A stretch of 50,010 bases of DNA from a virus. The DNA lies in the IMG/VR virus record IMGVR_UViG_3300048913_000097, one strand, 5' to 3'. The notes beneath the pieces were generated by a model. It had not been told where the DNA came from. It saw only the letters and a program-made list of their open reading frames with translations, and did not search any database. This document shows, piece by piece, positions 1 to 49,585 of the stretch (the stretch's first letter is position 1; every line of letters begins with the position of its first letter). The position numbers and the translations under genes were made by a program.

Positions 1-127
1 GTGCACCATGAACGCTCAAACATTAGCAGTGGACTTCACCAACATCGCACGCAAAGCCAAAGGCGTGGAAAGCGCCGCAAACGGGATGTTCTCGACCTTG
101 AAGGCTGAGGACGTTGCCGACCTGGGT
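1..127. repeat. Exact terminal duplication, copy 1 (identical to 49884..50010)
   Basis: Hand alignment: bases 1-127 recur base-for-base as the last 127 nt of the window. The non-redundant unit is 49,883 bp. Confidence 0.95.
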
Positions 128-993: not shown

Positions 994-1181
994 CTAACGC
1001 GACCATAACGTTCAAGGGTGCCAGTCGTGCGACGCTGTCAAAGATCGCACGTGACGCGCTCCAGGCTGCCGGGTTCGTGTGCAGCGACATGTTCTACAAC
1101 GACGCACATCAGAACGAGAGTTTCGTTGTGCAGAACCCACGTCGTACGATTAAGGACGCAGCGGCTGTTAAACCGCAATAG
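990..1181 (+). CDS. Hypothetical protein, 63 aa
   Basis: ATGA coupling to the upstream ORF. GAGGGG lies 5 nt upstream. The gene ends 14 nt inside the convergent gene 1168..1590. Confidence 0.6.
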
Positions 1182-1590
1182 CGCCCATGCCAGCGCGACG
1201 ACGCAGGCGATAGAACTGCTGACCGTACACTGTGAAGGTCAACCAGTCGTCGCCCACGTCCATCATCTTAGGTACCCGATACGCGATAGCCTCATCACCT
1301 ACTGACTTGCTGGCGACGTTCAACCGCGCCTCAGAGTTGGGATCAGCGGTCACACCGGTTGTGCCGTAGTTCGTCGCGAGCCAGTGCGCAGCGAAGTAGA
1401 ACATTCCACGCCGCTTGAAGTTGTGGCACTCGTCCTCGTACGCACCCCAGCGACTCGAACCCGTCTCGGCGTCAGCCTCGCACAATGCACAACTGATCAG
1501 CGCGTCGGGCCATTTGGTAACGTCGGAGAACGCGAAGAATTCAGCCCGGAAGCTGTCGATCATTGCCTGGGTGATGACCACGGTGGCCAC
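1168..1590 (-). CDS. Head-tail connector/adaptor, DUF4054-like
   Basis: The segment ...[11 protein letters not shown]...[13 protein letters not shown] resembles DUF4054 phage proteins (from memory). It sits at the end of the head module. The start is GTG 1590. An alternative GTG at 1581 has AGGAG 8 nt upstream. Confidence 0.7.
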
Positions 1591-2801: not shown

Positions 2802-2813
2802 TACCCGAGCATG

Positions 2814-2833
2814 AAAAACCCGCCGAAGCGGGT
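2814..2833 (-). terminator. Intrinsic terminator after the major capsid gene
   Basis: Minus strand reads ACCCGC-ttcg-GCGGGT followed by TTTTT, 14 nt after the capsid stop. Confidence 0.75.
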
Positions 2834-2846
2834 CAATCATTACACC

Positions 2847-3878
2847 TTAGATCGAGTCACGGTAAGCCGCGCTGAACGGGTAGCGGAACTCCACGCCGGA
2901 CAGCTTGTACTCGGCAGGGATGAACACGTTCAGGCCGCGCATTTGTGGAGCCAGTGCGCGCCATGGGATCGGGTTCACCATGCCCAGGTTTTCGTCGTTC
3001 AGTTCGTACGCCAGCATACGATCCTTCGAGCCGTTCGACACGCCACCGATGGCGAGTTGAGCGGCGGACAGTTGCAGGCGTGGAACCACGCGCAGCGCCT
3101 GACCGGTGAGGTTGGTGTACAGGTTGTTGCGCAGGAAGAACTCCAGCACGGTGGTGTCAGTACCGGTTTCCATACGTTTGGTGGAGATGAACGAGTAACG
3201 CGCCGAGTCCATGACCAGAACGTTCGGAACGTGCACGTTGGCCGAGTTGATCCATACCTTAGTCAGCAGGGTGTTCATGTCCTGAACGATCTGGTTACCA
3301 GTGGTGGCGGCGTTGTACCAGTCGACAGTCGACGAATCGAGTGCCAAGTTGGCGTTATTGAACAGACCGGTCATCTGGCGAGAGGCGTCACCGAAGTAAG
3401 CCACGCGCTGGGTGTGTTCCTGCGAACCACGGAATGCCGCCTGAGCCTTGGTGGTGTCCAGCGGGATACGCAGTTGCTGGGACTTACGCAGCTCGTCCAG
3501 GCTGTAATCGTAGCTGTTACCAGCGTAGCCGATTGGCACCGAGGACTTGTTTGCAGCGATGGCAACGTTCGGCAGGTCATCGGCGCTAGAACCGATGAAT
3601 TTACCAATGGTGACCGCGTCGTACGAGATGTAATCCCACGAATCGGCCCATTCAGGAACGTTCGTGTTGATTGGTACCAGTTCAGCAAAGCTGATCGCGG
3701 TGTATTTCGACTGATAAATCTTAGCTTCAAGATTCGCCAGTTGCGAAATGTAGAACGCCAGACCATCGTCCACGGTCGGGAGACCGTCAGTGAACGTAAT
3801 CTGGTGACCTTTTGGCAGACCGTTGCGCTCAGCGTATGCGTCAGCTACGGCTACAGAAATCTTAGTGCGCTGAGTCAT
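2847..3878 (-). CDS. Major capsid protein (DUF2184-type)
   Basis: 343 aa. LAFYISQLANLEAKIYQSKY...ELVPI...DDLPNV matches my recollection of the DUF2184 capsid family. It follows the scaffold and decoration genes and is followed by a strong terminator. Confidence 0.88.
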   Translation of the reverse strand: MTQRTKISVAVADAYAERNGLPKGHQITFTDGLPTVDDGLAFYISQLANLEAKIYQSKYTAISFAELVPINTNVPEWADSWDYISYDAVTIGKFIGSSADDLPNVAIAANKSSVPIGYAGNSYDYSLDELRKSQQLRIPLDTTKAQAAFRGSQEHTQRVAYFGDASRQMTGLFNNANLALDSSTVDWYNAATTGNQIVQDMNTLLTKVWINSANVHVPNVLVMDSARYSFISTKRMETGTDTTVLEFFLRNNLYTNLTGQALRVVPRLQLSAAQLAIGGVSNGSKDRMLAYELNDENLGMVNPIPWRALAPQMRGLNVFIPAEYKLSGVEFRYPFSAAYRDSI

Positions 3879-3880
3879 GA

Positions 3881-4378
3881 TCAGCCCCCAATGTTCAGAG
3901 TGATTTTAGCCAGCGCACCGGCACCTGCCGAACTGGTCCATTTGGCGTCCGGCACTTGAACGGCCAGGGTCGCAGCAGCGCCGACAACGTTCGAGAACTG
4001 ACCCTGGTTAGTACCAGTACCATCGCCGATGACCACCCATACCGGGTCGTCTTTGGTTACGGCCACACGGGCAGTTACCCATATCTCGCCGCTGGTAACA
4101 ACGGTCATGTCGCGCTTAGCGGTGGCGCCTACCACATCGGTAGCTGTGTAAGCGCGATTCAGTTCACGCTTGATCACGCCGATGAAGTTCGCAGCGGTCG
4201 AGGTCGATACGGGTAATTTCGCACCGTCATCACCATCGGTCACTACGCCTAGGCCGAACGCAAGGTTCACCGTACCCTTGTTGAGCTTCGATACGCTGTT
4301 CAGCAGTTGGAACCCGGTGGAGACCATGCCCGCATACGCGACGCCGTGGTTAATCGCATTGCCGCCTTGTACGCTCAT
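3881..4378 (-). CDS. Head decoration/cement-like protein
   Basis: 165 aa, Gly/Ala/Thr/Val-rich, lying between the scaffold and capsid genes. The stop of the upstream gene overlaps its start. The family assignment is tentative. Confidence 0.6.
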   Translation of the reverse strand: MSVQGGNAINHGVAYAGMVSTGFQLLNSVSKLNKGTVNLAFGLGVVTDGDDGAKLPVSTSTAANFIGVIKRELNRAYTATDVVGATAKRDMTVVTSGEIWVTARVAVTKDDPVWVVIGDGTGTNQGQFSNVVGAAATLAVQVPDAKWTSSAGAGALAKITLNIGG

Positions 4379-5546: not shown

Positions 5547-5574
5547 ATACTATCACGACGTTACGGATTATCAA
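5547..5574 (-). promoter_or_regulatory. Possible sigma70 promoter re-starting transcription into the scaffold gene
   Basis: Minus strand reads TTGATA-N16-TAGTAT, inside the last codons and 3' flank of the HNH gene. Confidence 0.3.
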
Positions 5575-6385
5575 ACTTGTTGCGTTTCGCAAAATTGTCT
5601 TCAGCCCATAACGGTTGAAGGTTGGATAATGCGTTCACGATGGCTGGATCGGTGACACCTTCAGCAACAAAAAGCGATACGGGTCGGATGTGGTCGATGT
5701 GCCAATCACCGTAGTTCGACCAACTCATCCCGCCGGTGAAAAGGGATGTCATGTAATCCATTAATTCGATACCGGTGTAGCCGAGTAGTGTGCTTGATCG
5801 ACCAACCTTCCGATTCTGACCCGCCGCCAGTACTCGTTTGAGCATATTGCGAGCTGCTGTCGCGGCTTTGTATCCCGGGTCAGTTGCGTAACGCCGACGT
5901 TGGTTTTCAACATTCTTCGCGATCATGTGAGAACGATTCGTCTGGTGGTAATCGGCCTTCATCGCTTTGTAATCTGGGCATAACCGCTTCAATGTCATGC
6001 AGTCGAGGCACTGGTTATTCGCCGTAGATCGCTCACCCCTATGACCCCGCTTGCACAGCACACCTTCGTTGTAACGGGTTAGACTCTGGGCGAGTGCATC
6101 AACTCGCGAGACGAATAACTCACCCACCGCGATACGATTTTGTTCGGCTTTATCTTTACGCCTGTCGGCTCGTGCCTGGGCTTGTCTTGCACGTCCGGCT
6201 TTGTAGACTTCGCCTTTGCGATACTCGACACCCATTTGTTTTGTTTCGTTGAGTGCATCGTACTCGCGCTTGATCTGGTTTTTACACGACTTACAGCGAT
6301 TATCAACCCCGCGTCCACACTTCTTGTTTCTGTGGAATTCCGTCAACGGTTTTTCGATACCGCATTTCACGCACGTCTTTGTCAT
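5561..6385 (-). CDS. HNH homing-endonuclease-like protein
   Basis: The C-terminus HIDHIRPVSLF...NLQPLWAEDNFAKRNK is an HNH motif. The N-terminal half carries CxxC...CxxC zinc-ribbon repeats. The start is set at ATG 6385, which has GAGGGCGGG upstream. The longer track ORF (to 6616) would cover the plus-strand promoter and gene. Confidence 0.85.
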   Translation of the reverse strand: MTKTCVKCGIEKPLTEFHRNKKCGRGVDNRCKSCKNQIKREYDALNETKQMGVEYRKGEVYKAGRARQAQARADRRKDKAEQNRIAVGELFVSRVDALAQSLTRYNEGVLCKRGHRGERSTANNQCLDCMTLKRLCPDYKAMKADYHQTNRSHMIAKNVENQRRRYATDPGYKAATAARNMLKRVLAAGQNRKVGRSSTLLGYTGIELMDYMTSLFTGGMSWSNYGDWHIDHIRPVSLFVAEGVTDPAIVNALSNLQPLWAEDNFAKRNKFDNP

Positions 6386-6432
6386 TGATCCCGCCCTCGC
6401 AATATTTACCAAACAATAACGTGTGCGAAGGG

Positions 6433-6461
6433 TTGACGCAACTTGTATCGACTGACAATAT
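6433..6461 (+). promoter_or_regulatory. Sigma70-like promoter TTGACG-N17-CAATAT
   Basis: TTGACG 6433-6438, CAATAT 6456-6461. It points into 6492..6791. Confidence 0.5.
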
Positions 6462-6474
6462 GACGAAAACGTCA
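6461..6474. promoter_or_regulatory. TGACG-aaaa-CGTCA dyad placed at the -10/+1 of promoter 6433
   Basis: Exact palindrome. This is the only copy not fused to its own -35. Confidence 0.55.
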
Positions 6475-6491
6475 ATGAGGTGACATCAACG

Positions 6492-6791
6492 ATGGAAGGT
6501 ATGAAATTTGATAGCGGGAAACCGCTGATGAGCCTCATCCCGGCGAGAGCAGAAACGGCAATGGCTGAGGTTTTGACGTTTGGTGCGACGAAGTATGGTC
6601 CCGACAACTGGCGCAAAGTTGCGAATGGTGACCAACGTTACTTGGACGCGCTCATGCGCCACGTGAACTCACATCGACGGGGCGAGCTTCTGGACAGTGA
6701 GACCGGTCTCCCTCACCTTGCGCACGCGATGTGCTGTGTGGCGTTCCTGTTGGAGCTGCAACTCAACCCTTACCCTCCTGAAACGCCTTAA
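6492..6791 (+). CDS. dATP/dGTP pyrophosphohydrolase-like protein (DUF5664-type)
   Basis: KFDSGKPLMSLIP...VLTFGATKYGPDNWRK...RHVNSHRRGELLDSETGLPHLAHA matches the DUF5664 phage family as I recall it. The start is ambiguous (GTG 6480, ATG 6492, ATG 6501). Confidence 0.7.
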   Translation: MEGMKFDSGKPLMSLIPARAETAMAEVLTFGATKYGPDNWRKVANGDQRYLDALMRHVNSHRRGELLDSETGLPHLAHAMCCVAFLLELQLNPYPPETP

Positions 6792-9986: not shown

Positions 9987-11384
9987 CATCGACCCAATCG
10001 GCACTTTCGCCAACATCCCCCGGCACGCAGCGATGATGAACGAGTCTGCGATGTTGGGGGATACGATCTCGCGCTTAGCCAGATCCTTCTTGCTCTCCAC
10101 CTTGACCTTCCCCGCGTTGTCGAAGTCACGCATGGGCGTCGACAGCTCATCAATCAGCTTGTTCAACAACTTCGCGTCACACTCACTCGACAGGCTGATC
10201 ATCTGATCAGCGGGGAACTGTCGACCCTTTGTCACGGCCAGATACGTGTTACGGAAGCGATCCGCTGCGAGCCACCATGCTTGGGCTTTCAGATTTGCGA
10301 AAAAGTCCTCGTTGGTGATCTTGGTGTCGCCGTAGTGACGTTTCGGGTCGCTCACCTTGCCGCCAGCGTTGAAACGGTAGTGACGGCGCCACAGCAACGA
10401 GTTCAGGTGAGACCCTGTACCAGCGCCTACCCCGATGCTGTCGTAACCGATCTGCGACGCCTGGAGACGTTCGGCGGTCATTTTCACACGGGCTGCCGAC
10501 TCTCGTAACTCATCCTGTCCGCCTTTCCACTCGTCGAGGTCGATGCAGACCATCCCATCCATTGTAGTGGTGGCGTTCTTGTCGTCCCCATCGTCCGCCA
10601 CGTCGTAACCAACGGTCTTGCCCCCGGTCCATGTACCCGACAGCGGTTTAACGATCTTGTGCGCGTCTACAGCGGCTTGGAGCCACGCACGTTTGATAAC
10701 GACACTGTCGTCGCTGTCGAACGGAACGCCTTTGTACGTGTGGATCGCGAGGTCGTAGTCTTCCTCAAACGCCGACTCGATATCAGCCAAGGCGGAAGGG
10801 GAGAGGAACGGGTTTTCGTCGTAATTGATTTGACGGATCAGCGTACCGCGTGGCGGCGAGATAACGAGACGCTTCCAGGCGAAGTCGGTAGCGAATCGGG
10901 CGTTGAACGAGAACCACATCTCGGCGCCATCGTTACGCATGACCGTCGGGCGCACCGTGTTGAACGCTGATTCAGTCATCAGGTGGGCTTCCTCCCACCA
11001 TGACACCGTTGCACCTTCAAACGATTTGATCTCGTCGACGTTGCGCGCCACACCGTAGAACCGGAACAGCGACCCGTTGGTCTTGTGCTCAATGGCGTCG
11101 GCGTAAATCTTGAAATTCTTGTCCAGCTCGAAATAGCTGATCTTGTCCTTCAACAACGTGTACACCGAGTCGGCGATACGGTTCTGGAACATCCGCAGGC
11201 ACAGGAAGCGTTCGGTGCTGAAGTTTGCCCGGGCTATGGCCACACCGGCCATGTCGTGGGACTTGGAGGACATCCGGCCACCGTGTAACACCCTGAACCG
11301 CACCGGGTCGCCTTCAGGCGTCTCACGGGTTGTCCAGAAATCACGGAGTGCGGGATTAAGAGTTGGACCCATAGAAATCGTCAA
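9981..11384 (-). CDS. terL: Terminase large subunit (PBSX/Terminase_3-like)
   Basis: 467 aa. Walker-A-like HGGRMSSKSH. The C-terminal nuclease half carries conserved acidic residues. The start overlaps TerS. Confidence 0.9.
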   Translation of the reverse strand: MTISMGPTLNPALRDFWTTRETPEGDPVRFRVLHGGRMSSKSHDMAGVAIARANFSTERFLCLRMFQNRIADSVYTLLKDKISYFELDKNFKIYADAIEHKTNGSLFRFYGVARNVDEIKSFEGATVSWWEEAHLMTESAFNTVRPTVMRNDGAEMWFSFNARFATDFAWKRLVISPPRGTLIRQINYDENPFLSPSALADIESAFEEDYDLAIHTYKGVPFDSDDSVVIKRAWLQAAVDAHKIVKPLSGTWTGGKTVGYDVADDGDDKNATTTMDGMVCIDLDEWKGGQDELRESAARVKMTAERLQASQIGYDSIGVGAGTGSHLNSLLWRRHYRFNAGGKVSDPKRHYGDTKITNEDFFANLKAQAWWLAADRFRNTYLAVTKGRQFPADQMISLSSECDAKLLNKLIDELSTPMRDFDNAGKVKVESKKDLAKREIVSPNIADSFIIAACRGMLAKVPIGSML

Positions 11385-11928
11385 GCCTTGCGCGGGTAGT
11401 TACTTCACCGGAAAGTTTAATCTCGGTTGGTTTGTTATAACCCATAAGTTCGGCAAGTTGTTTCATCGCTGCTCGACGGTCTGCCGGACTTGTAAGTTTG
11501 TATCTAACGCCGCCTTCCGGATCAATAATAACTTCCGCAACATCGGCAAGTTTGTCGGGGTTATTTAAGTCTGCGACTGTAACTTTCGTTAACGCCATAT
11601 CATTTAACAACAGCGCCATATCGTCACGGGACATAATCGCGTCGGCAAGCCGATTAGTTTGATTGGACTTTAACGAACTGACGAACTCGGCAACCTTTTG
11701 ATTTCCCATGATCTGACTGGCGCTCATGTCGGCACCAGCATCCGTCTTCGCCTTACCACCGGCACGACGATACGCAGCACGTTGAGTCAACCCTTCGAGT
11801 GTCCCGATCACCACGCCTTGCTGCAAACGAGTCAGGGCGTGGAATGCCGAGACCTGTTCGTCGCTCAGTTCGATGGTGCGATTGTCGATGGTGATCAGCA
11901 TTGCGGAAAGCCTTGCGGTTGAGGTCAC
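11356..11928 (-). CDS. terS: Terminase small subunit
   Basis: 190 aa immediately upstream of TerL. An HTH-like N-terminal region ...GLTQRAAYRRAGGKAKTDAGADMSASQIMGNQKVAEFV is typical of Terminase_2-type small subunits. Start is GTG 11928 or ATG 11901. Confidence 0.78.
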   Translation of the reverse strand: MTSTARLSAMLITIDNRTIELSDEQVSAFHALTRLQQGVVIGTLEGLTQRAAYRRAGGKAKTDAGADMSASQIMGNQKVAEFVSSLKSNQTNRLADAIMSRDDMALLLNDMALTKVTVADLNNPDKLADVAEVIIDPEGGVRYKLTSPADRRAAMKQLAELMGYNKPTEIKLSGEVTTRARLDDFYGSNS

Positions 11929-11973
11929 ACGATTGTCGCCGTCGCTGACAGGCGAGTCAATCCCGACAGGTCC

Positions 11974-12000
11974 ATACCCCGTAAAACTGATTCGGGGTAT
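11974..12000 (-). promoter_or_regulatory. Leader inverted repeat ATACCCCG-11 nt-CGGGGTAT upstream of terS
   Basis: 8-bp arms and an 11-nt loop. It is the counterpart of 49160..49184. Confidence 0.55.
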
Positions 12001-12048
12001 TTATCGGGGTATGTCGTAAGTCCTTGTATTTACTACTAATATATATTT

Positions 12049-12260
12049 TATACCCCGATACCCCGAATAAATAATATTAGTAGTAGAGTAGTAATGTATA
12101 TGAGAATACATATCATTATATATTATATCGTATGGCTGGAGAGTGAGAGCGATACGGGGTATTCGGGTAAACCCGCTACAAGCCACGTAATCCGTGGCTT
12201 CCAGGCTACCCCGGATAGTTTGCGAGTTCCGGGGTACGGGGTATACCGGGGTACGGTTTT
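12049..12260. repeat. Dispersed repeat A (homologous to 49235..49432), ATACCCCG-box rich
   Basis: Three conserved blocks are shared with copy B. They are TATACCCCGATACCC..AATAAATAATATTAG, GAGAGTGAGA.CGAT.CGGGGTATTCGG.TAA and TACCCCGGATAGTTTGCGAGTT.CGGGGTACGGGGTAT. Confidence 0.9.
12122..12170 (-). promoter_or_regulatory. Candidate activator-dependent late promoter A (drives terS operon)
   Basis: Minus strand reads CCGAATACCCCGTATCGCTCTCAC-15 nt-TATAAT. There is no TTGACA-like -35. Copy B has identical geometry. Confidence 0.45.
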
Positions 12261-12261
12261 G

Positions 12262-12450
12262 AGCGAAAATAAATTATCTCGACACCAGTTAAATTAAAAA
12301 TGATTATTTTCTGGTCAAAAAGTAACCAAATTAAATTAAAAATAAATTACTGAAAATTAACTAACGTCGAGATAATTATAAATCGATCAATTTTTAACCA
12401 GATGTCAACCAAAAATGATCAAAAGTCGACAGCGATAAATTACTGAAATT
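12262..12450. other. AT-rich, repeat-dense non-coding island
   Basis: Hand count gives 48 G/C in 12261-12450 (about 25 percent). A 12-bp inverted repeat AATTATCTCGAC / GTCGAGATAATT lies at about 12272 and 12367. Direct repeats are TTAAATTAAAAAT (12289, 12330) and ATAAATTACTGAAA (12342, 12435). Confidence 0.8.
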
Positions 12451-12471
12451 AAAAAACCCGCCTAAGCGGGT
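12451..12471 (-). terminator. Intrinsic terminator ending the early minus-strand block
   Basis: Minus strand reads ACCCGC-ttag-GCGGGT followed by TTTTTT. The stem overlaps the stop codon of 12462..12953. Confidence 0.75.
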
Positions 12472-12953
12472 CGTTGCATCACGTAAACCTGTTCCCAGGT
12501 CGGCCATCCTTTGGTCACATTTGGACCCCTGTCGACCTTTTTGCGCTTCACCTTGACGGGTGGAACCCATTCGAATTTGATGTCGATTCCACGTACTTTC
12601 ATGGCGTATCGGATGCCCGAGTTCTGACTGGCGCCACAGAATCCAATCGCCCTGTTCACCTGATTCAAGCTATAGCCCTCTCGCTGCATTCTCAACAGAG
12701 CGTCTCTGAACGGCTCACCTGTATCGCGTACATAGTTGGCGACCACATTGGAACTACCCCACGGGTTGTTGTCTTGGTTAGCTCTCAGTAACGCTGTAAA
12801 GGCATTACGTTCCATACCGATAATTCGGGACGCATCAGCGCGTGTGAACCCCTGATGGTGTATATCGTGTACGAGTCGCCAGAATGGAATACCCCAGCGT
12901 TCAGCAACTCGTACACGTGTCCAACTTCGCTTGGTTTCAGTGGCGTTTAACAT
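12462..12953 (-). CDS. HTH DNA-binding protein, 163 aa (candidate late regulator)
   Basis: HTH-like segments (FTRADASRIIGMERNAFTALLR and YSLNQVNRAIG). It is the last gene before the terminator and late repeat A. Confidence 0.65.
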   Translation of the reverse strand: MLNATETKRSWTRVRVAERWGIPFWRLVHDIHHQGFTRADASRIIGMERNAFTALLRANQDNNPWGSSNVVANYVRDTGEPFRDALLRMQREGYSLNQVNRAIGFCGASQNSGIRYAMKVRGIDIKFEWVPPVKVKRKKVDRGPNVTKGWPTWEQVYVMQRPA

Positions 12954-13230
12954 AGCGTTCCAACTTCCTGAAGTCGATACCGGTTATACGACCCAACTCT
13001 TTCCAAGTTGCACCAGCGGCTTTAAGTCGTTTCATGCGTGCAAGTTCATACGACGTCAACAACCCCGTGGACTTACGCAATGGTGACTGATAACGCTTGT
13101 CGCGTTTGTAACCGGCTGCTGCAAGTGCGCGACGTACAAGATGCACCGTACTTCCGCAACGAGTCGCCACAGTGTGCCAGGGGAGCCCAGAGTTGCGTAA
13201 ATCGATAGCCCGGTCGGTGTCTATGCTCAT
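12937..13230 (-). CDS. Double-HTH DNA-binding protein, 97 aa
   Basis: Two HTH-like units: LPWHTVATRCGSTVHLVRRAL and ATWKELGRITGIDFRKLERYV. Confidence 0.65.
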   Translation of the reverse strand: MSIDTDRAIDLRNSGLPWHTVATRCGSTVHLVRRALAAAGYKRDKRYQSPLRKSTGLLTSYELARMKRLKAAGATWKELGRITGIDFRKLERYVKRH

Positions 13231-17952: not shown

Positions 17953-20274
17953 CTATCCTACCACCGCCTGACTCAACGCCGCAATCGCCACGGGGTCACC
18001 CTGCGCCGCCTCGTAATGGCGTACCACCTCAGCACCCCCGACCAGATTGGCGTGGATATGACCCTGGCGGATGTACAGGCGCGGTTTACCGTTATCCATG
18101 AGGATGTGGTTATTTACGCGACCATCCTTCAACGCCGGATGCCAGTCGTAGCCGATGGATTTCATCAGGTCGCGACGTTTGCGTGGGGCTATGGCGCGAC
18201 CCATACGCAGCCGTTCAATCAGTGCATCAAGTGCCATGCTCGAGACCCAACCGCCCGCGAACCCTTGACGACCTTCCTCGATGCACTCGAGCACCTCTTG
18301 TTCCACCGCGCCCAGGCTCGCCTCGACTGCTTCACCGGTGGTACTGGTGTACGGGGCACGCTGACAACCTAACGTGGGGTTGAACTCTACGGGGATCGCG
18401 TAGGTGCTGAGAAAATGCGCCACGTGGGCATAACCGTCGCCACGCAGCCAGTCGTACAGGTCCGGGAAGTAGTTACCACTCATTCCGTCTCGGGCGATGT
18501 CCTCGACCTGCTGTTGTGCGGTGAAGAACACGCAAAACCGTCGGTCGTTGAGAGTCTTCTTGATGGCGTTGCGATGGTTACTGTTAAATATGAAGTTTGC
18601 GCAGTTCGCCATCATGACCTGATCTTGCTGCATGGCGCGCTTCGCCAACCGGTCCCCCGTGATCATGGGCTTCAGGATTTCCAACACTTCAGCTTTACTA
18701 TCCGGTACGTGAATATCCTCAACCCCCACGAATATCGTATTAAACAGCCACGAGTTGAATTTTTCACTGATTTCACTTGCTGGCGGCATATGGGTATAAC
18801 GCTGACCGACAGCGTATGCCACACAGCGGGTAATGAGAGTTTTACCATTGCCCTCACAACCCTGAAACAGTGGTGCCCATTGAAACTTATGCCCTGGATA
18901 CTGAACGATGGCAGCAGCGTAACTCAGAGCGATTTGTCGATCACGCTCGTTCGGTAGTAATTTAGCAAGGTGAGTCATAAACCGCGTCACGTCCCCCGGA
19001 ACCTTGCGCACATTCACCGGTACATACGTGTTTACCATCCTGCGACCTTCTTCTTCGATGATTGCTCCGGACGGATGTCGCGGGTCAAACACAGAGCCGT
19101 CAACTTTCGGGAATGTTACACCCTGGTTCTCAGTGAATGCCTCGAATGCCTTCTTTGTCGTTTTCTCCCCTGTATCATCCAGACTAAAAGTGAACCCCCC
19201 CATCAAGGCGTTGAATTGCTCCGATTTCAGCATTGTACCGTTTGGCATGAATACACGGTGCGCATCCGCCACGTACACGCACCCACGAAAGTGATCAACG
19301 ACTTGGGTGATTGGTAAGAATTGGAACCCGGCGCGAATGACCGGATCGACCACCGACGCCACGGGGGTCATTTCGATAGGTTTACCGACGCTATACCACG
19401 ATGTTTGGCGTGCAACGGCACCGCAGATAGTGCGATGCATGTAAGACTTATGCTTGTCCCACTTCGGGCGAACCATCGCGCTCATACGCATTAGACGATC
19501 AATGCGGTCACATTGGCCGCCCGTCCAGAATGCCAAACGCTGTGCCAAGCTGGCATCGGCTGACGATCCATCGTACCCACCGTCTTCGGCAGGCCATGAT
19601 TCGGTCAGTGCTTCGACGTTCTTTTCCCACAAATCCCGAAATGACGCTTTACCGCCTCCGAAGATGGACGCGATTGATTCACTTGCCAGGGCCTTTTCAA
19701 TGAGTCGCGCATCGTCCTGGATTGGACAGCTGTCGGGATGGGGTACAGTCGTCCATGTGGTCGGATTGACAGCGATTTCAGCGGGGAAGTATTGCGCCAC
19801 GGTCTGGTTAAAGGGGGTGTCACTCGGGTGCATCATATCGCCAGATGCACCCGTTCCCAGGCAGATGAAACGATCGTCGGTATAACACTCGATGTTGAGC
19901 GGGATATTTTTGCACCCGTGGTCAGGCATGTCACCAACCACCACGCCGAAGATGTGGAGACCTGTGCCACTGTTGGACGTTTCGGTCATGCATCCGGCGA
20001 ATCGAGTACATAACTCAATCGCAAGAGGGGACCAAGTTTGATCAGGTAGAAGGCACGCATCCAAGTCAATGCAGAACCTACCGTCACCATTGAGAATCGT
20101 GGCGGGGCGATATTCGGCGCCCAGTAGTGCGGCGCGATCAATCGCGTCAGCGTGCGACATACGGTCGGCGACGTGAAGGCTGACAACTTTACCTGATAGG
20201 TCGCACGGCATTTTTTCAGTTTTACCCGGACGATTGGTCGACGGGATAGTTTTGCAGATGATGAAATTATTCAT
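17953..20274 (-). CDS. Primase-polymerase / D5-P4-type helicase fusion
   Basis: The N-terminal region is prim-pol-like (...CIDLDAC...GTGLHIFG). The C-terminal part has Walker A GCEGNGKT and Walker B FVGVEDIH. The start is set at ATG 20274, which overlaps the upstream stop. Confidence 0.88.
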   Translation of the reverse strand: MNNFIICKTIPSTNRPGKTEKMPCDLSGKVVSLHVADRMSHADAIDRAALLGAEYRPATILNGDGRFCIDLDACLLPDQTWSPLAIELCTRFAGCMTETSNSGTGLHIFGVVVGDMPDHGCKNIPLNIECYTDDRFICLGTGASGDMMHPSDTPFNQTVAQYFPAEIAVNPTTWTTVPHPDSCPIQDDARLIEKALASESIASIFGGGKASFRDLWEKNVEALTESWPAEDGGYDGSSADASLAQRLAFWTGGQCDRIDRLMRMSAMVRPKWDKHKSYMHRTICGAVARQTSWYSVGKPIEMTPVASVVDPVIRAGFQFLPITQVVDHFRGCVYVADAHRVFMPNGTMLKSEQFNALMGGFTFSLDDTGEKTTKKAFEAFTENQGVTFPKVDGSVFDPRHPSGAIIEEEGRRMVNTYVPVNVRKVPGDVTRFMTHLAKLLPNERDRQIALSYAAAIVQYPGHKFQWAPLFQGCEGNGKTLITRCVAYAVGQRYTHMPPASEISEKFNSWLFNTIFVGVEDIHVPDSKAEVLEILKPMITGDRLAKRAMQQDQVMMANCANFIFNSNHRNAIKKTLNDRRFCVFFTAQQQVEDIARDGMSGNYFPDLYDWLRGDGYAHVAHFLSTYAIPVEFNPTLGCQRAPYTSTTGEAVEASLGAVEQEVLECIEEGRQGFAGGWVSSMALDALIERLRMGRAIAPRKRRDLMKSIGYDWHPALKDGRVNNHILMDNGKPRLYIRQGHIHANLVGGAEVVRHYEAAQGDPVAIAALSQAVVG

Positions 20275-21188
20275 GCCAGAAGTTCCAACCATGTGGTGAT
20301 ATCAGGATTCATTTGCCGCCACTCCGTTGCACCGTCGAAACCCTTCAGCCCGGCGGATGGGAATTGCGAATGAAATAGTTTTTCTAATGACGGAGGGATC
20401 GACCCATCATCACAGTGAATTTCACGGTGGACTGAGAATTTAAATGGGGTATTTCGCCTAAGTGTCATTTGGCGTTTGGTGGGGCTATTGCTGATCCCAA
20501 TCTTAATCATTTTCTCGTCATGGGAAATCAACGCATACAATGTCCCCGGATTCGATGGGTTATATCCGCTGGTTGCGCAACTTGGACACCTGTTACTTTC
20601 ACGAACGAAACCGCATATACCTACTTGCCACTCACCATGTATGTCGCAGCTCATGATCGCTCGACTGCGGGAATCAACATATTCACCGATCCACCCGATA
20701 AATTTGTAACCGTCGAGTAACGCAATGGTAGTTAATTGTGCCTCCCGTTCGTCACGGGATAATTTTTTATCACCGCAGTCTGGGCACCGTCGACCCTTAT
20801 TGATGAAGTTGTTCGGCGTGGTTAGCCAGTCACCATGTCTCGAACACCTGATAGTCATTTTACTGAACATGCCAGAATATTCGCCGCCCCAACCTATAAA
20901 AATAAGGTTGGTTTGCGACATCAATGCTGTAATTTTTGATTCGCAAACATCACGAGGCATCCGAGTCTGAACACCCCTCACCTCGCAGGCGCACGAACGG
21001 CAACGAGCTCCCTTGTGGTAGAAGCCGCCGACCGACGACGTCCAGTCACCATGTTTCACGCAGTTAAATATTGCGCGACTTTTACTATTCTTGTATTCGT
21101 CGACAAAACCTACAAACTTGTACCCATCAGCTAAAGCAGCGGCAGACAACTGCACCGCCCGATCCGATGTCGAGATTTTCTTAACCAT
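20271..21188 (-). CDS. T5orf172 / GIY-YIG-like homing-endonuclease-type protein with three zinc-ribbon repeats
   Basis: It has three tandem modules of about 55 aa with the pattern GYKF(V/I)G..EY..S.S....C..HG.W......F.....RC..C. The C-terminus GTLYALISHDEKMIKIGISNSPTKRQMTL...GATEW resembles the T5orf172 domain. Confidence 0.78.
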   Translation of the reverse strand: MVKKISTSDRAVQLSAAALADGYKFVGFVDEYKNSKSRAIFNCVKHGDWTSSVGGFYHKGARCRSCACEVRGVQTRMPRDVCESKITALMSQTNLIFIGWGGEYSGMFSKMTIRCSRHGDWLTTPNNFINKGRRCPDCGDKKLSRDEREAQLTTIALLDGYKFIGWIGEYVDSRSRAIMSCDIHGEWQVGICGFVRESNRCPSCATSGYNPSNPGTLYALISHDEKMIKIGISNSPTKRQMTLRRNTPFKFSVHREIHCDDGSIPPSLEKLFHSQFPSAGLKGFDGATEWRQMNPDITTWLELLA

Positions 21189-21220: not shown

Positions 21221-21505
21221 TCAAAGCAAGGTTTGCAATGCTCGAACCCTGAGAGCTTTCGGGGCTTTCATCGCCGTCGAATCACCTTCGGCCATTCCCG
21301 CCGCCAAGATGTCAAGCTGTTCCGATTCAATGGCGCGTTTCATGATTGCGGTCTTGAGATCATCCATCTTTCCATAGTGGAGGTTCACAGTACCACCCGC
21401 CACACCCGCACGCTCTGCAATCGCATCCCGTCTGATACCGCGATACCCACACTCGCACGCCAGGGTGAACGCTGCGTCGAGGATCTTGTCTTTCAAATGA
21501 CTCAT
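21221..21505 (-). CDS. Mini TetR-family HTH protein (94 aa, DNA-binding domain only)
   Basis: ILDAAFTLACECGYRGIRRDAIAERAGVAGGTVNLHYGKMDDLKTAIM matches the TetR N-terminal HTH pattern. There is no room for a ligand-binding domain. Confidence 0.7.
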   Translation of the reverse strand: MSHLKDKILDAAFTLACECGYRGIRRDAIAERAGVAGGTVNLHYGKMDDLKTAIMKRAIESEQLDILAAGMAEGDSTAMKAPKALRVRALQTLL

Positions 21506-21522
21506 ATGTGTGTCCCACTCTT

Positions 21523-21552
21523 AATATATTGGCATTGGTGCCAGTGTGTCAC
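21523..21552 (-). promoter_or_regulatory. Candidate promoter with TGGCA-N4-TGCCA dyad in the spacer, upstream of the TetR-like gene
   Basis: Minus strand reads GTGACA-N18-TATATT. A perfect dyad TGGCAttggTGCCA lies at 21530-21543. Confidence 0.4.
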
Positions 21553-22298
21553 CCGCTGACAGGCGCGTCAATGTACGCCGCTATAAACTCTTTTGCCGCC
21601 GGGGCACAGATGGCATTCCCGTAGGCGCGGATTGCCCCCACTCGCCCGGGAGACCCATCAGCCAACGGGAGTGTTCCGGGTTCAATTGGCCTCCGGCTGC
21701 CGTCCCGTCCCCGTATAACCACACAGTCCGACCAAGCAGTGAGTTTATCGGTACGTTTGCCGACGCTGATTTCCCATCCTTCCAGTCTCTCGTCGTCGGC
21801 GTCGGCCACCCAGAACAATCGGTCTCGGATGTGCGGCGCACCGACGCCCGCAGACGGGAACGCGACTGCCCCGAAGGCGTAACCCATAGCTTCCACGTCA
21901 GCGTGTACAAGGTCGATCCAAGGTCCGACAGCCTTACTCGCAACCTGCTCTCCAAAGATGACTGGAGGGCGGCGCTGGAGGATGAGCCATTCGAAGGAGG
22001 GCCAGAGGTGCCGCTCGTCAGCAAACCCCACTCCCTCGCCTGCCTGGCTGAAAGGTTGGCAGGGGCAAGAGCCTGTCCATACTGGTCTATCGTCAGGCCA
22101 CCCAGCTTGTCGTAGTGCGTATGACCACACGCCAATTCCGGCGAAGAAATGGCACTGAGTGAATTCTCGCAAGTCGTCGGGTCTGACATCTTCGATACTA
22201 CGTTCATCTACTTCCCCTGGTGTGATGTGTCCGGCGGCGATCAGATTCCGTAACCATTGGGCCGAGAACGGATCGATTTCATTGTAATAAGCAGCCAT
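21549..22298 (-). CDS. DNA (cytosine-5) methyltransferase
   Basis: Motifs: FFAGIGVWS (I), PCQPFSQAG (IV), GEQV (VI), HIRDRLFWV (VIII-like), GNAICAPAA (X). Start is ATG 22298 or GTG 22307. Confidence 0.88.
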
Positions 22299-36210: not shown

Positions 36211-37421
36211 ACCACCGTCGTACTGATGTTGACAGCCGTCCAGCGTGAGAGCTGGTTAAACGCTATCGCCACATTGGATGTACCGCCATTGACGGTGAAC
36301 GATTGGATATAACTGTTACCGAATTCACCGAGTACCTTGTTGATGGGTGTGGTCAGTGTCAGATATGGAACGCTCTCACCGATGTCAAAACCTGTCTGCT
36401 TGAACCCATCACCCGCAGGTACGAGCGTACCCACTGTGAACTCGAGGAACGCCTCGTCGATGAGATCCGCAATGTTCGTCGGCAGCGTCCCGTCATTCTT
36501 CACGGTGACCGCAACGATCATGTCCAGATACAATGGTGTGGCCCATCGCACCAACTTGGAATTAGTTGGGTACTTTGGCGATATGACCGTGGTACTGACA
36601 GGGGTGCCCGACTGGTTCAGCAGTACGCCAGGGTTTTTCTTGACGTAGATCGCCATACCTACATCTGCAATTGCACCGCCGTCGACGATGATCGAGATCG
36701 AATGCGCTGGGAGACTGTACGGGTTATTCACTGCGTCAAATGCTGCGCTATTCGTATCGTTCTCGTAAATCTTGACATGACGTACACCACTCACCGCGTA
36801 CAGTTCGCCATACATCGAATCGATCTGGTTATTGCCTGGGCGTCCGACCGCCGTTGCCCGCTCGATTCGCAGTGATGAATCGAGTTGTTCATCGGTGCCG
36901 GGGGTGGCCACGCTGGGGTTGTTGACGCCCGTCCAGCCGCCTACCACGTCGACGATATTGGTGAGCGTGGCGATGTCCGCCTGAGTGGGGCCGGTAACGG
37001 TGCAGGTTGCCGTAGTGGTTGCCGTACCGGCTGTGAGCGTCACCGTCTCGTCGATTGTCCAGCGCGAACCGTTGGTGGACGACTCGATACGCTTACCGGC
37101 TGGCACGATTGTTCCGTCAGTACCCATGAGCGTCACGGCGACGTTCGACGGCGTACCCTCGGAGCGGGTGGTGCCAGTCAGCGCGCAGATCACATTAAGA
37201 TCGACACCCACGGCTTTGTTCGGGTCTTTGGAGTTGTACGCCTGTTGCAGCGTCTCATCCAACACACCGAATACTTCTGCATCGTGAGCGAGTTTCAGTC
37301 CGTCTGGTGTCGAGGGGTCCAGGTTCCACGCGGGGTCAATGTCGAGATAGAGCTGACGTTCCTCGTCGAACCAATCGTTTTGGGTCTTGAGGGCGTACCC
37401 CTGCGCCGTGACTTCAGCCAT
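36207..37421 (-). CDS. Baseplate J-like protein
   Basis: 404 aa in the position and size expected for the baseplate wedge J family. It overlaps both neighbouring genes. Confidence 0.78.
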   Translation of the reverse strand: MAEVTAQGYALKTQNDWFDEERQLYLDIDPAWNLDPSTPDGLKLAHDAEVFGVLDETLQQAYNSKDPNKAVGVDLNVICALTGTTRSEGTPSNVAVTLMGTDGTIVPAGKRIESSTNGSRWTIDETVTLTAGTATTTATCTVTGPTQADIATLTNIVDVVGGWTGVNNPSVATPGTDEQLDSSLRIERATAVGRPGNNQIDSMYGELYAVSGVRHVKIYENDTNSAAFDAVNNPYSLPAHSISIIVDGGAIADVGMAIYVKKNPGVLLNQSGTPVSTTVISPKYPTNSKLVRWATPLYLDMIVAVTVKNDGTLPTNIADLIDEAFLEFTVGTLVPAGDGFKQTGFDIGESVPYLTLTTPINKVLGEFGNSYIQSFTVNGGTSNVAIAFNQLSRWTAVNISTTVV

Positions 37422-41088: not shown

Positions 41089-41744
41089 TAGAAAATACTC
41101 TCAAGGACCGAATCGACCTGTTTCGTAACAGCAGCCTTCGCATCAGCGACCATTTTCTGACCGCGATTGATCGCCCGGGTGGTCGCCGACTTCGATTGAT
41201 CGCCGTCACGCAGTTGATCGGGTGCAGGCGGACCGACGAACGAAATACGTTCCAGGGTGATCAGCTCTTGAAGATCCGCAACGAATATCAAACCGTTCTC
41301 GTTGCTTGGGTCTTTCGTGCGCGACAGACGAGTGATCACCATATTATTCAACGTGATGTCACCAGCATCAATGGTGAAGGGATCGCCCGATTGCATGAGA
41401 ACGATCAGAAACTGTAACGTGGTGCTGGCACGTGTCTCATCACTGCCCGCCAGGAAACCCGCTGACAAACCCGCAACAGTCGACACAAGTGGGTTATTCG
41501 TCAGGTTCGATAACGCACCGCCGAGGAAGTCGGTCAGTTGTACCTTGAGAGGATTATTGCTCACCGCTCCGACGAGCGACCATTTAAACGGTTGCAGGAT
41601 CCGATGATCCGCCACACGCACACCCGACTCAATCGGATAAGTCGTCACTTCCACCGTGGCTTCGAACGTGTCTTCCAGCACCGCGTCGAATGAGTAACCC
41701 GCGATGGTCGGCGCCTGTTTGGTGAAGAGTTGAACAATGCTCAC
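41088..41744 (-). CDS. Tail/baseplate protein, 218 aa
   Basis: It lies directly after the tape measure gene. No specific motif. Confidence 0.65.
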   Translation of the reverse strand: MSIVQLFTKQAPTIAGYSFDAVLEDTFEATVEVTTYPIESGVRVADHRILQPFKWSLVGAVSNNPLKVQLTDFLGGALSNLTNNPLVSTVAGLSAGFLAGSDETRASTTLQFLIVLMQSGDPFTIDAGDITLNNMVITRLSRTKDPSNENGLIFVADLQELITLERISFVGPPAPDQLRDGDQSKSATTRAINRGQKMVADAKAAVTKQVDSVLESIF

Positions 41745-41747
41745 GGG

Positions 41748-49121: not shown

Positions 49122-49159
49122 GGGTCGAATAATACCACAATGGTTGTCGTGACAATCCT

Positions 49160-49184
49160 TACCCCGGTAATTCTATACGGGGTA
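49160..49184 (-). promoter_or_regulatory. Leader inverted repeat TACCCCG-11 nt-CGGGGTA upstream of 48636..49121
   Basis: 7-bp arms and an 11-nt loop. It is the counterpart of 11974..12000. Confidence 0.55.
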
Positions 49185-49234
49185 GACATTCGGGGTATCG
49201 CTGAGAGTACCGGGATAGACACCTCCTTTTATTC

Positions 49235-49432
49235 TATACCCCGATACCCTTAATAAATAATATTAGAATAGGGATGGTATGTATGTAATACAGTAACGTA
49301 TATAGCCAGCGGCGTGAGAGTGAGATCGATGCGGGGTATTCGGTTAACACCCCTCAAACCCGCGTGCTAGAGCGCTAGAATCGTACCCCGGATAGTTTGC
49401 GAGTTTCGGGGTACGGGGTATGGTTTCAGCAC
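49235..49432. repeat. Dispersed repeat B (homologous to 12049..12260)
   Basis: It has the same three conserved blocks in the same order and orientation as copy A. Confidence 0.9.
49299..49347 (-). promoter_or_regulatory. Candidate activator-dependent late promoter B (drives neck/tail operon)
   Basis: Minus strand reads CCGAATACCCCGCATCGATCTCAC-15 nt-TATATA. The geometry is the same as in copy A. Confidence 0.45.
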
Positions 49433-49565: not shown

Positions 49566-49585
49566 TGAGTACCTGACCAACGGTA

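Follow-up and report, generated by a model that had tools for sequence, protein, structure and literature searches.

A box array duplicated at the late-operon heads of a Jedunavirus-related myovirus, with a predicted late promoter and a possible replication origin

Each of the two late operons of the myovirus genome analysed here is headed by a copy of one repeat cassette of ~300 bp, in which 9–11 short boxes are arranged around a usually AT-rich spacer and a predicted σ70 promoter follows on the gene side. Our best, still tentative, explanation is that a late-operon promoter has been fused to an iteron array that may also be an origin of replication. The cassette yields testable candidates for the late promoters, for the origin or origins and for the DNA target of an NrS-1/SaPI-like primase–helicase.

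The window, that is, the whole stretch of 50,010 nt (IMG/VR virus record IMGVR_UViG_3300048913_000097), is a complete closed circular genome of 49,883 bp, its bases 1–127 being identical to 49884–50010; the relatives of this myovirus are Jedunavirus and Peatvirus. Therapeutic phages against Klebsiella, Pectobacterium, Edwardsiella and Acinetobacter are widely isolated from among the Jedunavirus-type and related 'dwarf' myoviruses. Literature searches on the motif, on Jedunavirus promoters and on AAM22 found no earlier description. In the literature searched on this phage group we found no reports of transcription start sites (TSSs), footprints, transcriptomes or replication, and no description of Jedunavirus-type origins or late-gene control. 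The cassette is the sole repeated non-coding element of the genome besides an early-promoter palindrome (TTGACGAACCCGTCA). The GC/AT skew switches at ~12 kb without a change in transcription direction and separates early from late genes; because it tracks this gene boundary, GC skew is uninformative on the origin.

Architecture of the two copies

The initial annotation had described two homologous elements of ~200 bp upstream of the two late operons. Both are real, exactly two copies being present, each on the minus strand. The homology was borne out, whereas the length was not, as the D2 boxes and the promoter (P2) listed below extend each cassette to ~300 bp. Copies A and B are direct repeats with 74.5% identity over 263 ungapped columns, separated around the circle by 12.7 kb and 37.2 kb. 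In gene sense, each copy reads U2 (a box inverted repeat), U3 (a double box), AT-rich filler, D1 (a double box in inverted orientation), D2 (three boxes) and P2, followed by terS (copy A) or the Neck1 gene (copy B); U2, U3 and D1 correspond to blocks 3, 2 and 1 of the annotation, which are present with their 15-nt spacings as described. The features referred to below are as follows.

11356–11928, minus strand: terS, first gene of the head/packaging late block; likely start ATG 11901
11932–12254, minus strand: whole cassette of copy A, from P2 to the outermost U2 box, upstream of terS; nhmmer match of the D1–D2 model at 12066–11973, E = 1.7e-17
11932–11960, minus strand: predicted P2 of copy A, σ70-type TTGACT-17-GACAAT; predicted TSS ~11925, with a ~24-nt leader to ATG 11901
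11974–12012, minus strand: D2 of copy A, TACCCCG-N5-TACCCCG-N11-CGGGGTA in gene sense
12050–12065, minus strand: D1 of copy A, tandem double box CGGGGTAT-CGGGGTAT in gene sense
12066–12151, no strand: filler of copy A, 72–75% AT, dyad centre near 12110
12152–12169, minus strand: U3 of copy A, TTACCCGA-ATACCCCG in gene sense, an inverted D1
12207–12254, minus strand: U2 of copy A, three TACCCCG, N14 and one CCGGGGTA in gene sense
17953–20292, minus strand: PrimPol (with an NrS-1-like HBD), SF3 helicase and conserved C-terminal domain; leading candidate for box binder and initiator
21221–21505, minus strand: TetR_N-like protein of 94 aa, always adjoining the primase gene
48636–49121, minus strand: tail-completion/Neck1 gene, first gene of the tail late block
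49129–49421, minus strand: whole cassette of copy B, upstream of the tail-completion/Neck1 gene; nhmmer match at 49252–49158, E = 1.1e-13
49129–49139, minus strand: predicted P2 of copy B, extended −10 TGTGG-TATTAT, 25 nt past the last box and 7 nt before ATG 49121
49160–49198, minus strand: D2 of copy B
49236–49250, minus strand: D1 of copy B, GGGTAT-CGGGGTAT in gene sense
49251–49328, no strand: filler of copy B, 65–71% AT
49329–49346, minus strand: U3 of copy B
49384–49421, minus strand: U2 of copy B, TACCCCG TACCCCG-N16-CGGGGTA in gene sense
49586–49614, plus strand: divergent early σ70 promoter of the TTGACG-N4-CGTCA palindrome type, on the far side of copy B

The box is strongly over-represented. 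The window contains its octamer ATACCCCG 13 times where 1.26 occurrences are expected (seven in region A, four in region B), and the heptamer TACCCCG 23 times where 5.1 are expected (ten and eight), so that an earlier count of roughly ten octamers per region holds for the heptamer and not for the octamer. With a 5–7-nt core as the unit, copy A comprises 11 boxes and copy B nine. U3 is an inverted copy of D1 across the filler; in copy A this pair (12051–12068 and 12152–12169) is 83% complementary over 18 nt, and three nested inverted box pairs share a common centre near 12110. A 12-bp inverted repeat also flanks D1 of copy A (12031–12042 and 12074–12085); such a repeat around D1 is significant in only 5 of 21 elements. 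The fillers are 72% (A) and 65% (B) AT, with 80-nt peaks of 75% and 71%, and rank among the most AT-rich stretches of the genome. A degenerate GGGGTAGGGGTTACGG pair that had been annotated upstream of the connector gene does exist (1663–1678), as an isolated occurrence with no counterpart in the relatives.

A predicted late promoter

The gene-proximal end of the cassette is, with good confidence, the σ70 promoter of a long late operon, an assignment based on conservation, phasing and gene layout. In copy B, P2 is the extended −10 element TGTGGTATTAT, in which TG-G-TATTAT supplies the TGn, the A at −11 and the T at −7 of such promoters; 16 of 19 scored elements are of this type, and the motif itself recurs in MSW-3 copy A, L283, L287 and L302. 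P2 of copy A is instead a −35/−10 promoter (TTGACT-17-GACAAT) that is kept in the close relatives L007–L009, L011 and L016. Most elements have no −35 hexamer at P2; with its good one, copy A of the window's clade might fire without any factor. The distance from the last box to the −10 is 25–28 nt in 16 of the 19 scored elements and 35–37 nt in the others (that of L016_A was read by eye), while the sequence between diverges. In most elements the last of the 9–11 boxes would fall between about −38 and −44 of P2.

No other late-block promoter is visible in the window, and the other late genes abut antisense early promoters, which leave them no space for a promoter each. The Neck1 ATG lacks a Shine–Dalgarno sequence and stands 7 nt past the −10, which fits a leaderless P2 transcript and not a 170-nt leader; P2 of copy B is accordingly predicted, from the sequence, to give a leaderless Neck1 mRNA. 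MSW-3 copy B has no room for a P2 beyond its last box. A σ54 reading of the P2 region, judged by eye, was dropped, as it fails the GG-N10-GC spacing.

The promoter originally annotated, a TATAAT (A) or TATATA (B) hexamer 15 nt past block 2, is rejected because its offset from the U3 box is not kept outside the window's clade and because −10-like hexamers abound in the filler, which holds 6–18 of them, at no conserved offset, in every relative. The TATATA of copy B also has no T at −7 of a −10 hexamer. The associated leaders of ~170–185 nt are not retained either, given a conserved promoter that is gene-proximal and a Neck1 ATG 7 nt after the −10, and for terS we prefer the start ATG 11901 to GTG 11928.

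Conservation across relatives

Megablast of both regions against phage records gave no match, and sensitive blastn gave one weak match, which was the route to the relatives. The cassette proved to be kept across several genera. Five complete genomes are each matched exactly twice by a D1–D2 sequence model, ahead of terS and of Neck1 and always in their sense, and in every relative examined the element heads a late block, in its sense, in four unrelated downstream-gene contexts in all. IMG/VR holds 374 relatives with the primase C-terminal domain; among the 80 IMG/VR loci with this domain that were surveyed, the element lies downstream in 43, and the next gene, within ~60–250 nt, is terS/TerL (35) or an unrelated minor-tail/Neck1-like gene, phrog_4688 (5). 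Acinetobacter phage Scuro has only the replication module in common with the window and carries one element, which has no D2, before the one late block that it possesses, which is unrelated.

Across genera the boxes keep their sequence, orientation and spacing while the filler diverges, which points to selection on the sites themselves. D2 spans 35–41 nt in 19 of 20 elements and lies at a constant 36–40 nt from D1, and its internal boxes switch orientation between clades with the span unchanged. The spacer between the opposed double boxes measures 81–129 bp and is usually AT-rich. The exceptions, MSW-3 copy B (48% AT) and L032, whose filler looks GC-rich, weaken a role as an unwinding element for at least some B copies. 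Three or four box pairs are mirrored on one centre in window copy A, L025, L287 and L298 (p = 0.004–0.034); strict dyad symmetry is not significant in Jedunavirus and KsaM-type elements, in which the left-arm boxes are degenerate.

The same data bear on whether the boxes act in RNA, as an element in a long late leader that controls antitermination or attenuation by GGGGUA–UACCCC pairing. A hypothetical 187-nt leader does fold better than its shuffles (z = −3.1), with D1 paired to D2, and late transcripts must cross antisense cassettes and annotated terminators. The fold excess, however, follows automatically from inverted boxes, and no conserved promoter lies upstream of D1. The boxes are invariant, with no covariation; the changing orientation of the internal D2 boxes within a fixed span fits protein sites on duplex DNA rather than a helix; the Scuro element does without D2; and no Rfam family reaches its gathering score anywhere in the window. 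We therefore give this reading very little credence.

Two neighbouring features were also considered. A divergent early promoter adjoins U2 in window copy B and in both KpV52 copies. A divergent gene for a Cys-rich protein of 193 aa, found beside copy A in KpV52, PEAT2, KsaM-C1 and MSW-3, was set aside, as neither the window nor Scuro has it. The boxes clustered in L297 belong to a tandem repeat in coding sequence and not to an element.

Candidate box-binding proteins

The boxes are likely to form a multi-site platform for one sequence-specific phage protein of the replication or early module. The PrimPol–SF3 helicase, acting through a selectively conserved C-terminal domain, is the leading candidate for this protein, an identification that we hold to be evenly balanced. 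The protein has an NrS-1-like PrimPol and HBD and a weak match to SaPI5 PriRep (E = 2.4e-4). Identity in its C-terminal core stays at 65–72% throughout the box-bearing phages, including those in which identity of the helicase domain is down to 35–36%, and falls to 35% in phage Milano, which has no boxes and a different iteron cluster; no other candidate binder is specially conserved in this way. SaPI-type initiators bind their iterons through a C-terminal winged-helix domain. A confident AF2 model of the domain of the phage protein (residues ~640–779; pLDDT 87.7) gave no significant Foldseek match, only weak winged-helix-like ones (E at least 0.37), and PDB sequence searches with this domain and with the gp59-like and gp65-like proteins gave no match.

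The only conserved helix–turn–helix (HTH) protein, the TetR_N-like protein encoded beside the primase gene, was set aside as box binder: it has a variable recognition helix (NLHY, NHHW, SYYY, LRYY), in contrast to the invariant box, and it tracks the early-promoter palindrome, which it more probably binds. The two open reading frames put forward as regulators in the initial annotation, 12462–12953 and 12937–13230, are not conserved in box-bearing relatives. A Mor/C-type activator, also proposed there, found no backing, as a scan of ~45 of the open reading frames against Pfam and PHROG yielded no Mor/C or sigma-like product.

These searches weigh on a rival explanation, in which the 300-bp array only turns on P2, and perhaps silences the divergent early promoter, the boxes being sites for a dedicated activator or early-to-late switch, phage-encoded or of the host, with no origin involved. 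Such a control region would explain why the element always stands in sense orientation at late-block heads in four gene contexts, why its copy number equals the number of late blocks, why the D1–D2–(−10) geometry is rigid, with alternatives one helical turn apart, and why P2 of most elements has no −35 hexamer. The dispensability of AT-rich filler in MSW-3 copy B and L032 and the early promoter next to U2 in three copies fit it as well. Late promoters of the Mu Mor/C, P2 Ogr/P4 delta and P1 Lpa kind each have a single dyad site, which in the Mu Mor/C type overlaps about −30 to −55, and are served by a small activator dedicated to them; extended −10 promoters need no activator. The cassette resembles such late promoters in having a −10, usually no −35 and an upstream site at a constant position, which here ends ~25 nt before the −10, but differs in its 9–11 boxes over 270 bp, its extended −10 and the failure to find a Mor/C/Ogr-like protein. 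Against an activator array, then, stand the want of a candidate (the sole conserved HTH protein has a variable recognition helix and tracks the palindrome, and no Mor/C or sigma-like frame was found), a box number, in a dyad around an AT-rich centre, far above that of known late activators, and a promoter type that works unaided. We regard it as a serious contender that is nonetheless rather unlikely.

Likeness to replication origins

The anatomy of the array best fits a replication origin, a reading absent from the initial annotation. Origins of Staphylococcus aureus pathogenicity islands (SaPIs), which are used by self-loading Rep or PriRep helicases, comprise 6–12 short iterons and a central AT-rich region with at least two opposed iterons on each side, and their initiator is a helicase or primase–helicase with a DNA-binding C-terminal domain (PMC9371898). 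The cassette is alike in iteron number (11 and 9), in its AT-rich centre with iterons on both sides, in at least two opposed iterons per side (U3 facing D1), in its candidate initiator, a primase–helicase with a C-terminal domain that may bind DNA, and in lying downstream of a replication gene and ahead of the packaging genes. It differs in its core of 7–8 bp rather than 5–6 bp, in its two copies per genome, in the conserved promoter in fixed register, and in that the helicase here is part of a PrimPol–SF3 protein with an NrS-1-like HBD and a weak PriRep5 match. Nor does it lie immediately downstream of the initiator gene as in SaPIs: it stands some 0.8–5 kb from the primase–helicase gene, the distance to the primase stop being ~5.7 kb for copy A of the window and 0.8 kb in L274, with copy B far away.

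Other systems share parts of this design. In P4 (ori/crr with alpha) and SPP1 (oriL/oriR with G38P), two cis elements with boxes in both orientations serve an initiator of the phage's own, which in P4 is a primase–helicase with a C-terminal origin-binding domain. Here too there are two separated cis elements with one short box repeated in both orientations, but the copies are full duplicates, each with an AT-rich centre and both at late-operon heads. T4 oriF and oriG consist of a middle promoter and an unwinding element, and the T7 primary origin of promoters and an AT-rich region. The cassette likewise unites promoter and AT-rich region in one cis element of a lytic phage; it differs in having iterons and in the direction of its promoters, since those of T4 and T7 fire into the AT-rich region to prime, whereas P2 and the early promoter fire away from it. 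In the polyomavirus NCCR and the papillomavirus LCR, binding of an SF3-helicase initiator starts replication and switches transcription. These regions are alike in their short boxes of both orientations beside an AT-rich tract, between divergent early and late promoters; they belong to eukaryotic viruses and are unrelated in sequence, so that the resemblance is purely architectural and the coupling in our phage inferred.

The likeness could mean that the elements are replication origins and nothing more, two per genome as in SPP1 oriL/oriR or P4 ori/crr, with a late promoter that merely adjoins because the origin lies at the junction of replication and structural modules. Besides the SaPI-like anatomy, several observations agree with this: the element travels with the replication and not the structural module, the C-terminal domain of the primase–helicase is selectively conserved, and the primase operon precedes the element, in L274 with only ~0.8 kb between it and the primase stop. 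NrS-1-type PrimPols, moreover, can need an 8-nt template recognition sequence, which has been proposed to mark the origin (PMC7102993, PMC8718748). A pure origin nevertheless fails to account for a conserved −10 motif that accompanies the element, in helical register with the last box, into four gene contexts, for the place of the second copy exactly at the head of the tail block, and for the loss of AT-richness in some B copies; we consider it unlikely.

We prefer, tentatively, a promoter fused to an iteron array that may also be an origin. The 9–11 (A)TACCCCG boxes form an opposed double box on either side of the spacer, with further boxes outside; if the PrimPol–SF3 helicase binds them, the array would be a SaPI-type origin for a self-loading helicase, and two helicase rings would load on both sides of the AT-rich centre. 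Gene conversion, in this explanation, keeps the two copies of one genome alike. No DnaA boxes were found near the elements. Since the promoter-proximal boxes are in fixed helical register with the −10, the state of the array would set promoter activity; occupancy or firing of the array might in this way couple late transcription to replication, a step that we put forward as doubtful. Equally speculative is a phage analogue of the polyomavirus control region, in which the self-loading helicase would bind the dyad array, melt the AT-rich centre to initiate replication and, through the promoter-proximal boxes, license the phased late promoter. Expression of the structural genes would then be confined to genomes with occupied or fired origins, and each late block would have its own origin–promoter cassette, which would follow the replication module in exchanges of structural modules. 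A double role of the array as origin and late switch would, if it holds, provide a simple means of replication-coupled late transcription in a phage with no RNA polymerase or sigma factor of its own. The composite hypothesis is flexible, and this flexibility flatters its fit.

Packaging, recombination and assembly breaks

The initial annotation had named two further alternatives. In the first, the elements are pac sites of the SPP1/P22 type, recognized by the terminase through TerS, at which packaging series start. Copy A lies just upstream of terS, the usual location of pac, and SPP1 pacL and pacR consist of repeated boxes around bendable AT-rich DNA, which the cassette resembles; many database contigs, and the KpV52 record, also start inside the element. 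Contig ends fall there, however, because the element is a repeat, and IMG/VR contigs of 13–15 kb and 33–35 kb match the arcs between the copies. The window itself assembles as a circle whose 127-bp overlap lies away from both copies. That the genome has a second copy, placed at the tail block, does not suit a pac site, and the boxes do not co-vary with the DNA-binding domain of TerS: they are invariant, although the TerS proteins of the window and KpV52 have only their last 29 residues in common, with unrelated N-terminal parts, and the TerS-equivalent protein of Scuro is unrelated. With the DNA-binding part of TerS thus not conserved, the packaging reading is disfavoured to the point of being scarcely credible.

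In the second, the repeats are module-boundary recombination sequences with no function of their own. Copies within a genome are indeed homogenized, with A and B 99.3% identical in one relative and 92.5% in KpV52, against 77.7% between window A and KpV52 A, a comparison that covers only 148 nt. The element also stands at module-exchange junctions, as in Scuro and in one contig (L011 and L029) whose TerL is 98% and whose Neck1 is 50% identical to that of the window. Retention of the boxes across genera while the filler diverges speaks instead for selection on the sites, and recombination is more readily understood as following from the presence of a repeat; we hold this alternative to be very unlikely. 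The cassette is nonetheless a hotspot for module exchange, and metagenomic assemblies break at it, which leaves arcs of ~13 kb and ~35 kb. Matches listed for the pattern TACCCCG-N4–8-TACCCCG in viral contigs came mostly from unrelated contigs.

Two related cassettes precede the late blocks

The first and last 127 bases of the window (1-127 and 49884-50010) are identical, so the window is a complete genome, assembled as a closed circle of 49,883 bp. No close nucleotide match was found among phage records. At the protein level, TerL, portal, sheath and primase, among others, share 45-77% identity with their counterparts in Jedunavirus (KpV52), Peatvirus (PEAT2), Yokohamavirus (MSW-3) and Kosakonia phage KsaM-C1. 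The two direct repeats described in the initial annotation were confirmed: copies A and B align with 74.5% identity over 263 ungapped columns and are separated by 12.7 kb and 37.2 kb on the circle. Within the window, ATACCCCG has 13 matches (1.26 expected), 11 of them inside the two repeat regions, as are 18 of the 23 matches to TACCCCG (5.1 expected).

11932..12254 (-): copy A, followed by terS-terL-portal and head genes, all on the minus strand
49129..49421 (-): copy B, followed by a tail-completion/Neck1 gene and tail genes, all on the minus strand
17953..20292 (-): primase-helicase, 779 aa
21221..21505 (-): TetR_N-like protein, 94 aa

Anatomy of the cassette, in gene sense (box, (A)TACCCCG or CGGGGTA(T); U and D, box groups)
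U2: inverted repeat of the box, block 3 of the initial annotation
U2-U3 spacer: about 40 nt
U3: TTACCCGA-ATACCCCG
Filler: 81-129 nt, usually 65-81% AT
D1: CGGGGTAT-CGGGGTAT, preceded by a conserved CTAATATTATTTATT
D1-D2 spacer: 36-40 nt
D2: box TACCCCG first and box CGGGGTA last, spanning 35-41 nt
P2 (gene-proximal promoter): -10 element 25-28 nt, or 35-37 nt, past the last D2 box
Gene after P2: first gene of the late block

A model of D1-D2 returned exactly two matches each in the window, KpV52, PEAT2, KsaM-C1 and MSW-3, always in sense orientation upstream of terS and Neck1, which bears out the earlier siting of the repeats at the heads of late operons. Among IMG/VR relatives, almost every one sharing at least 46% protein identity has boxes upstream of Neck1; in all but a few weaker relatives the boxes are missing. 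The terS start proposed earlier, GTG 11928, probably moves to ATG 11901, which has AAGG upstream; in a relative (L011), an insertion and a deletion that compensate each other fall between the two codons.

No part of the genome is more AT-rich than 12260-12460 (82% AT), between a terminator (12455-12472) and copy A. This stretch is rich in direct and inverted repeats, such as ATAAATTACTGAAA(A)TTAA at 12342 and 12435, and is clade-specific, since KpV52 carries a gene at the equivalent position. A conserved Cys-rich protein of ~193 aa is encoded divergently from copy A in KpV52 (46646-47224), PEAT2 (21441-22022), KsaM-C1 (24519-25100) and MSW-3 (41695-42339), and is absent in the window and in Acinetobacter phage Scuro. 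An isolated pair, GGGGTAGGGGTTACGG, at 1663-1678, ~70 nt upstream of gene 1168..1590 (-), has no array around it and no counterpart seen in relatives.

Early and late promoters

The palindrome TGACGNNNNCGTCA occurs in 13 exact copies in the window (2787, 6461, 7547, 9562, 15337, 16055, 17748, 22343, 25476, 27835, 31886, 38614 and 49587) and in 21 when one mismatch is allowed, against about 4 expected. It marks promoters of the form TTGACG-N4-CGTCA-N7-TAnnnT, forming the -35/spacer part of predicted early sigma70 promoters, several of which point antisense within late blocks. Such promoters directly abut the start codons of the portal and head-morphogenesis genes, as well as KpV52 gp07, gp16 and gp33, so that the late blocks must be read from the two cassettes. 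An operator-like repeat, TGGTCACTCTGTGACTA, is present in three copies at 49476-49575, adjoining a divergent early promoter (49586-49614).

The TetR_N-like protein is conserved (Pfam E=7.5e-8) with a variable recognition helix, alongside which the palindrome varies: TGACG-N4-CGTCA in enterobacterial phages, TGACA-N4-TGTCA in Scuro and TACAA-N5-TTGTA in Milano. This protein thus more probably pairs with the palindrome than with the boxes, and TGACGNNNNCGTCA may be its operator.

The late promoter first proposed, TATAAT in copy A or TATATA in copy B at 15 nt after a conserved block, was not supported, because the filler holds 6-18 hexamers of -10 type at no conserved offset and the copy B TATATA lacks the T at -7. 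Downstream of D2, a motif TGTG(G/T)nA(T/C)(T/A)AT recurs (TGTGGTATTAT in copy B, MSW-3 copy A and loci L283 and L287; TGTGTGATAAT in KpV52 copy B; TGTGGCATTAT in locus L014), spaced from the last box by a constant interval or by one helical turn more, while the intervening sequence diverges. In copy A, P2 reads TTGACT-17-GACAAT and is conserved within its clade. Copy B has its ATG 7 nt past the -10 and no Shine-Dalgarno, predicting a leaderless mRNA; MSW-3 copy B, as an exception, leaves no room for P2.

Position, orientation, copy number and the conserved, phased -10 argue for a late-operon promoter region. The likeness of the promoter half to activator-dependent late promoters is only loose, and scans of about 45 ORFs found no Mor/C or sigma-like protein. 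That the boxes are an activator array and nothing else, which would account for these promoter features, seems to us unlikely.

An iteron array inherited with the replication module

U3 is D1 copied in inverted orientation, and copy A contains three nested inverted box pairs, all centred near 12110. Such mirrored pairs reach significance in copy A of the window and in loci L025, L287 and L298 (p=0.004-0.034), and not in Jedunavirus and KsaM types, where left-arm boxes are degenerate. The filler is not AT-rich in some B copies, and the Scuro element lacks D2.

Scuro and the window have in common the primase-helicase, DEAD helicase, a 161-aa protein, exonuclease, SSB, a weak DNA polymerase match and the TetR-like protein; beyond these, only an 82-aa piece of a tail-fibre-like protein matches, and none of the core structural proteins (TerL, portal, capsid, sheath, Neck1) is common to both. 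Scuro carries one U2-U3-filler-D1 element directly before its single late block, which is unrelated to those of the window. In loci L283, L287, L298 and L302 the gene after the element is a minor-tail/Neck1-like one from another family, phrog_4688. Eighty loci with the primase C-terminal domain were examined; 43 show a co-oriented element downstream, with terS/TerL next in 35 and the phrog_4688 gene next in 5. Judged from gene content, the element moves together with the replication module. Because it does so into unrelated late blocks, TerS was ruled out as a conserved box binder; the TerS proteins of the window and KpV52 have only the C-terminal 29 residues in common, and the Scuro protein is unrelated.

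SaPI origins consist of 6-12 short iterons with a central AT-rich region and at least two oppositely directed iterons per side. A self-loading helicase, fused to a primase in SaPI5, binds them through its C-terminal winged-helix domain; two hexamers are thought to load, one on either side (PMC9371898). In the window, the box array agrees in iteron number, AT-rich centre and iteron orientation, except that it sits away from the initiator gene. In the 779-aa protein, an NrS-1-like PrimPol and HBD are joined to an SF3 helicase, with a weak match to SaPI5 PriRep; NrS-1 polymerase can need an 8-nt template sequence, a proposed origin mark (PMC7102993, PMC8718748). The C-terminal core of the 779-aa protein keeps 65-72% identity across all box-bearing phages, including those whose helicase domain falls to 35-36%; the core is 35% identical in Agrobacterium phage Milano, which lacks GGGGTA boxes. 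These conservation patterns point to the C-terminal domain as a candidate box binder; its structure model is confident, and its structural matches are non-significant and weakly winged-helix-like. In an intergenic region of Milano (36990-37310), five AAGACTCAAT iterons, one of which is inverted, cluster about an AT-rich tract. Next come TTGTGGCATTTGC and gene Milano_102; the cluster may correspond to the cassette, with a different box.

Three features argue for an origin: iterons placed as a dyad about an AT-rich centre, passage of the element along with the replication module, and conservation of the C-terminal domain of the helicase. GC skew was uninformative in the window. An origin with no promoter role would leave the phased -10 aside and appears improbable. 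We tentatively prefer a promoter fused to an iteron origin, the reading that covers both sets of evidence.

Concerted evolution and module exchange

Copies within one genome resemble each other more than orthologous copies across genomes: copy A and copy B are 99.3% identical over 276 nt in IMGVR_UViG_3300046474_000094 and 92.5% over 333 nt in KpV52, whereas copies A of the window and KpV52 are 77.7% identical over only 148 nt. The cassette thus evolves in concert, which explains why many 13-15-kb and 33-35-kb database contigs end inside it. The first of these relatives is a mosaic, with a TerL 98% identical to that of the window and a Neck1 only 50% identical; together with its near-identical cassettes, this suggests module exchange at these sites. 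That the cassette is solely a passive recombination sequence, which such exchange would fit, is very improbable, and we give as little credence to a pac site or an RNA leader.

The long ORF 2811-3959 (+) was rejected as a gene: it mirrors the major capsid gene 2847..3878 (-) on the opposite strand. Two HNH/endonuclease VII-type ORFs, 20271-21188 (-) inserted between the TetR-like and primase genes and 5561-6616 (-) inserted within the head block, look like homing endonucleases.
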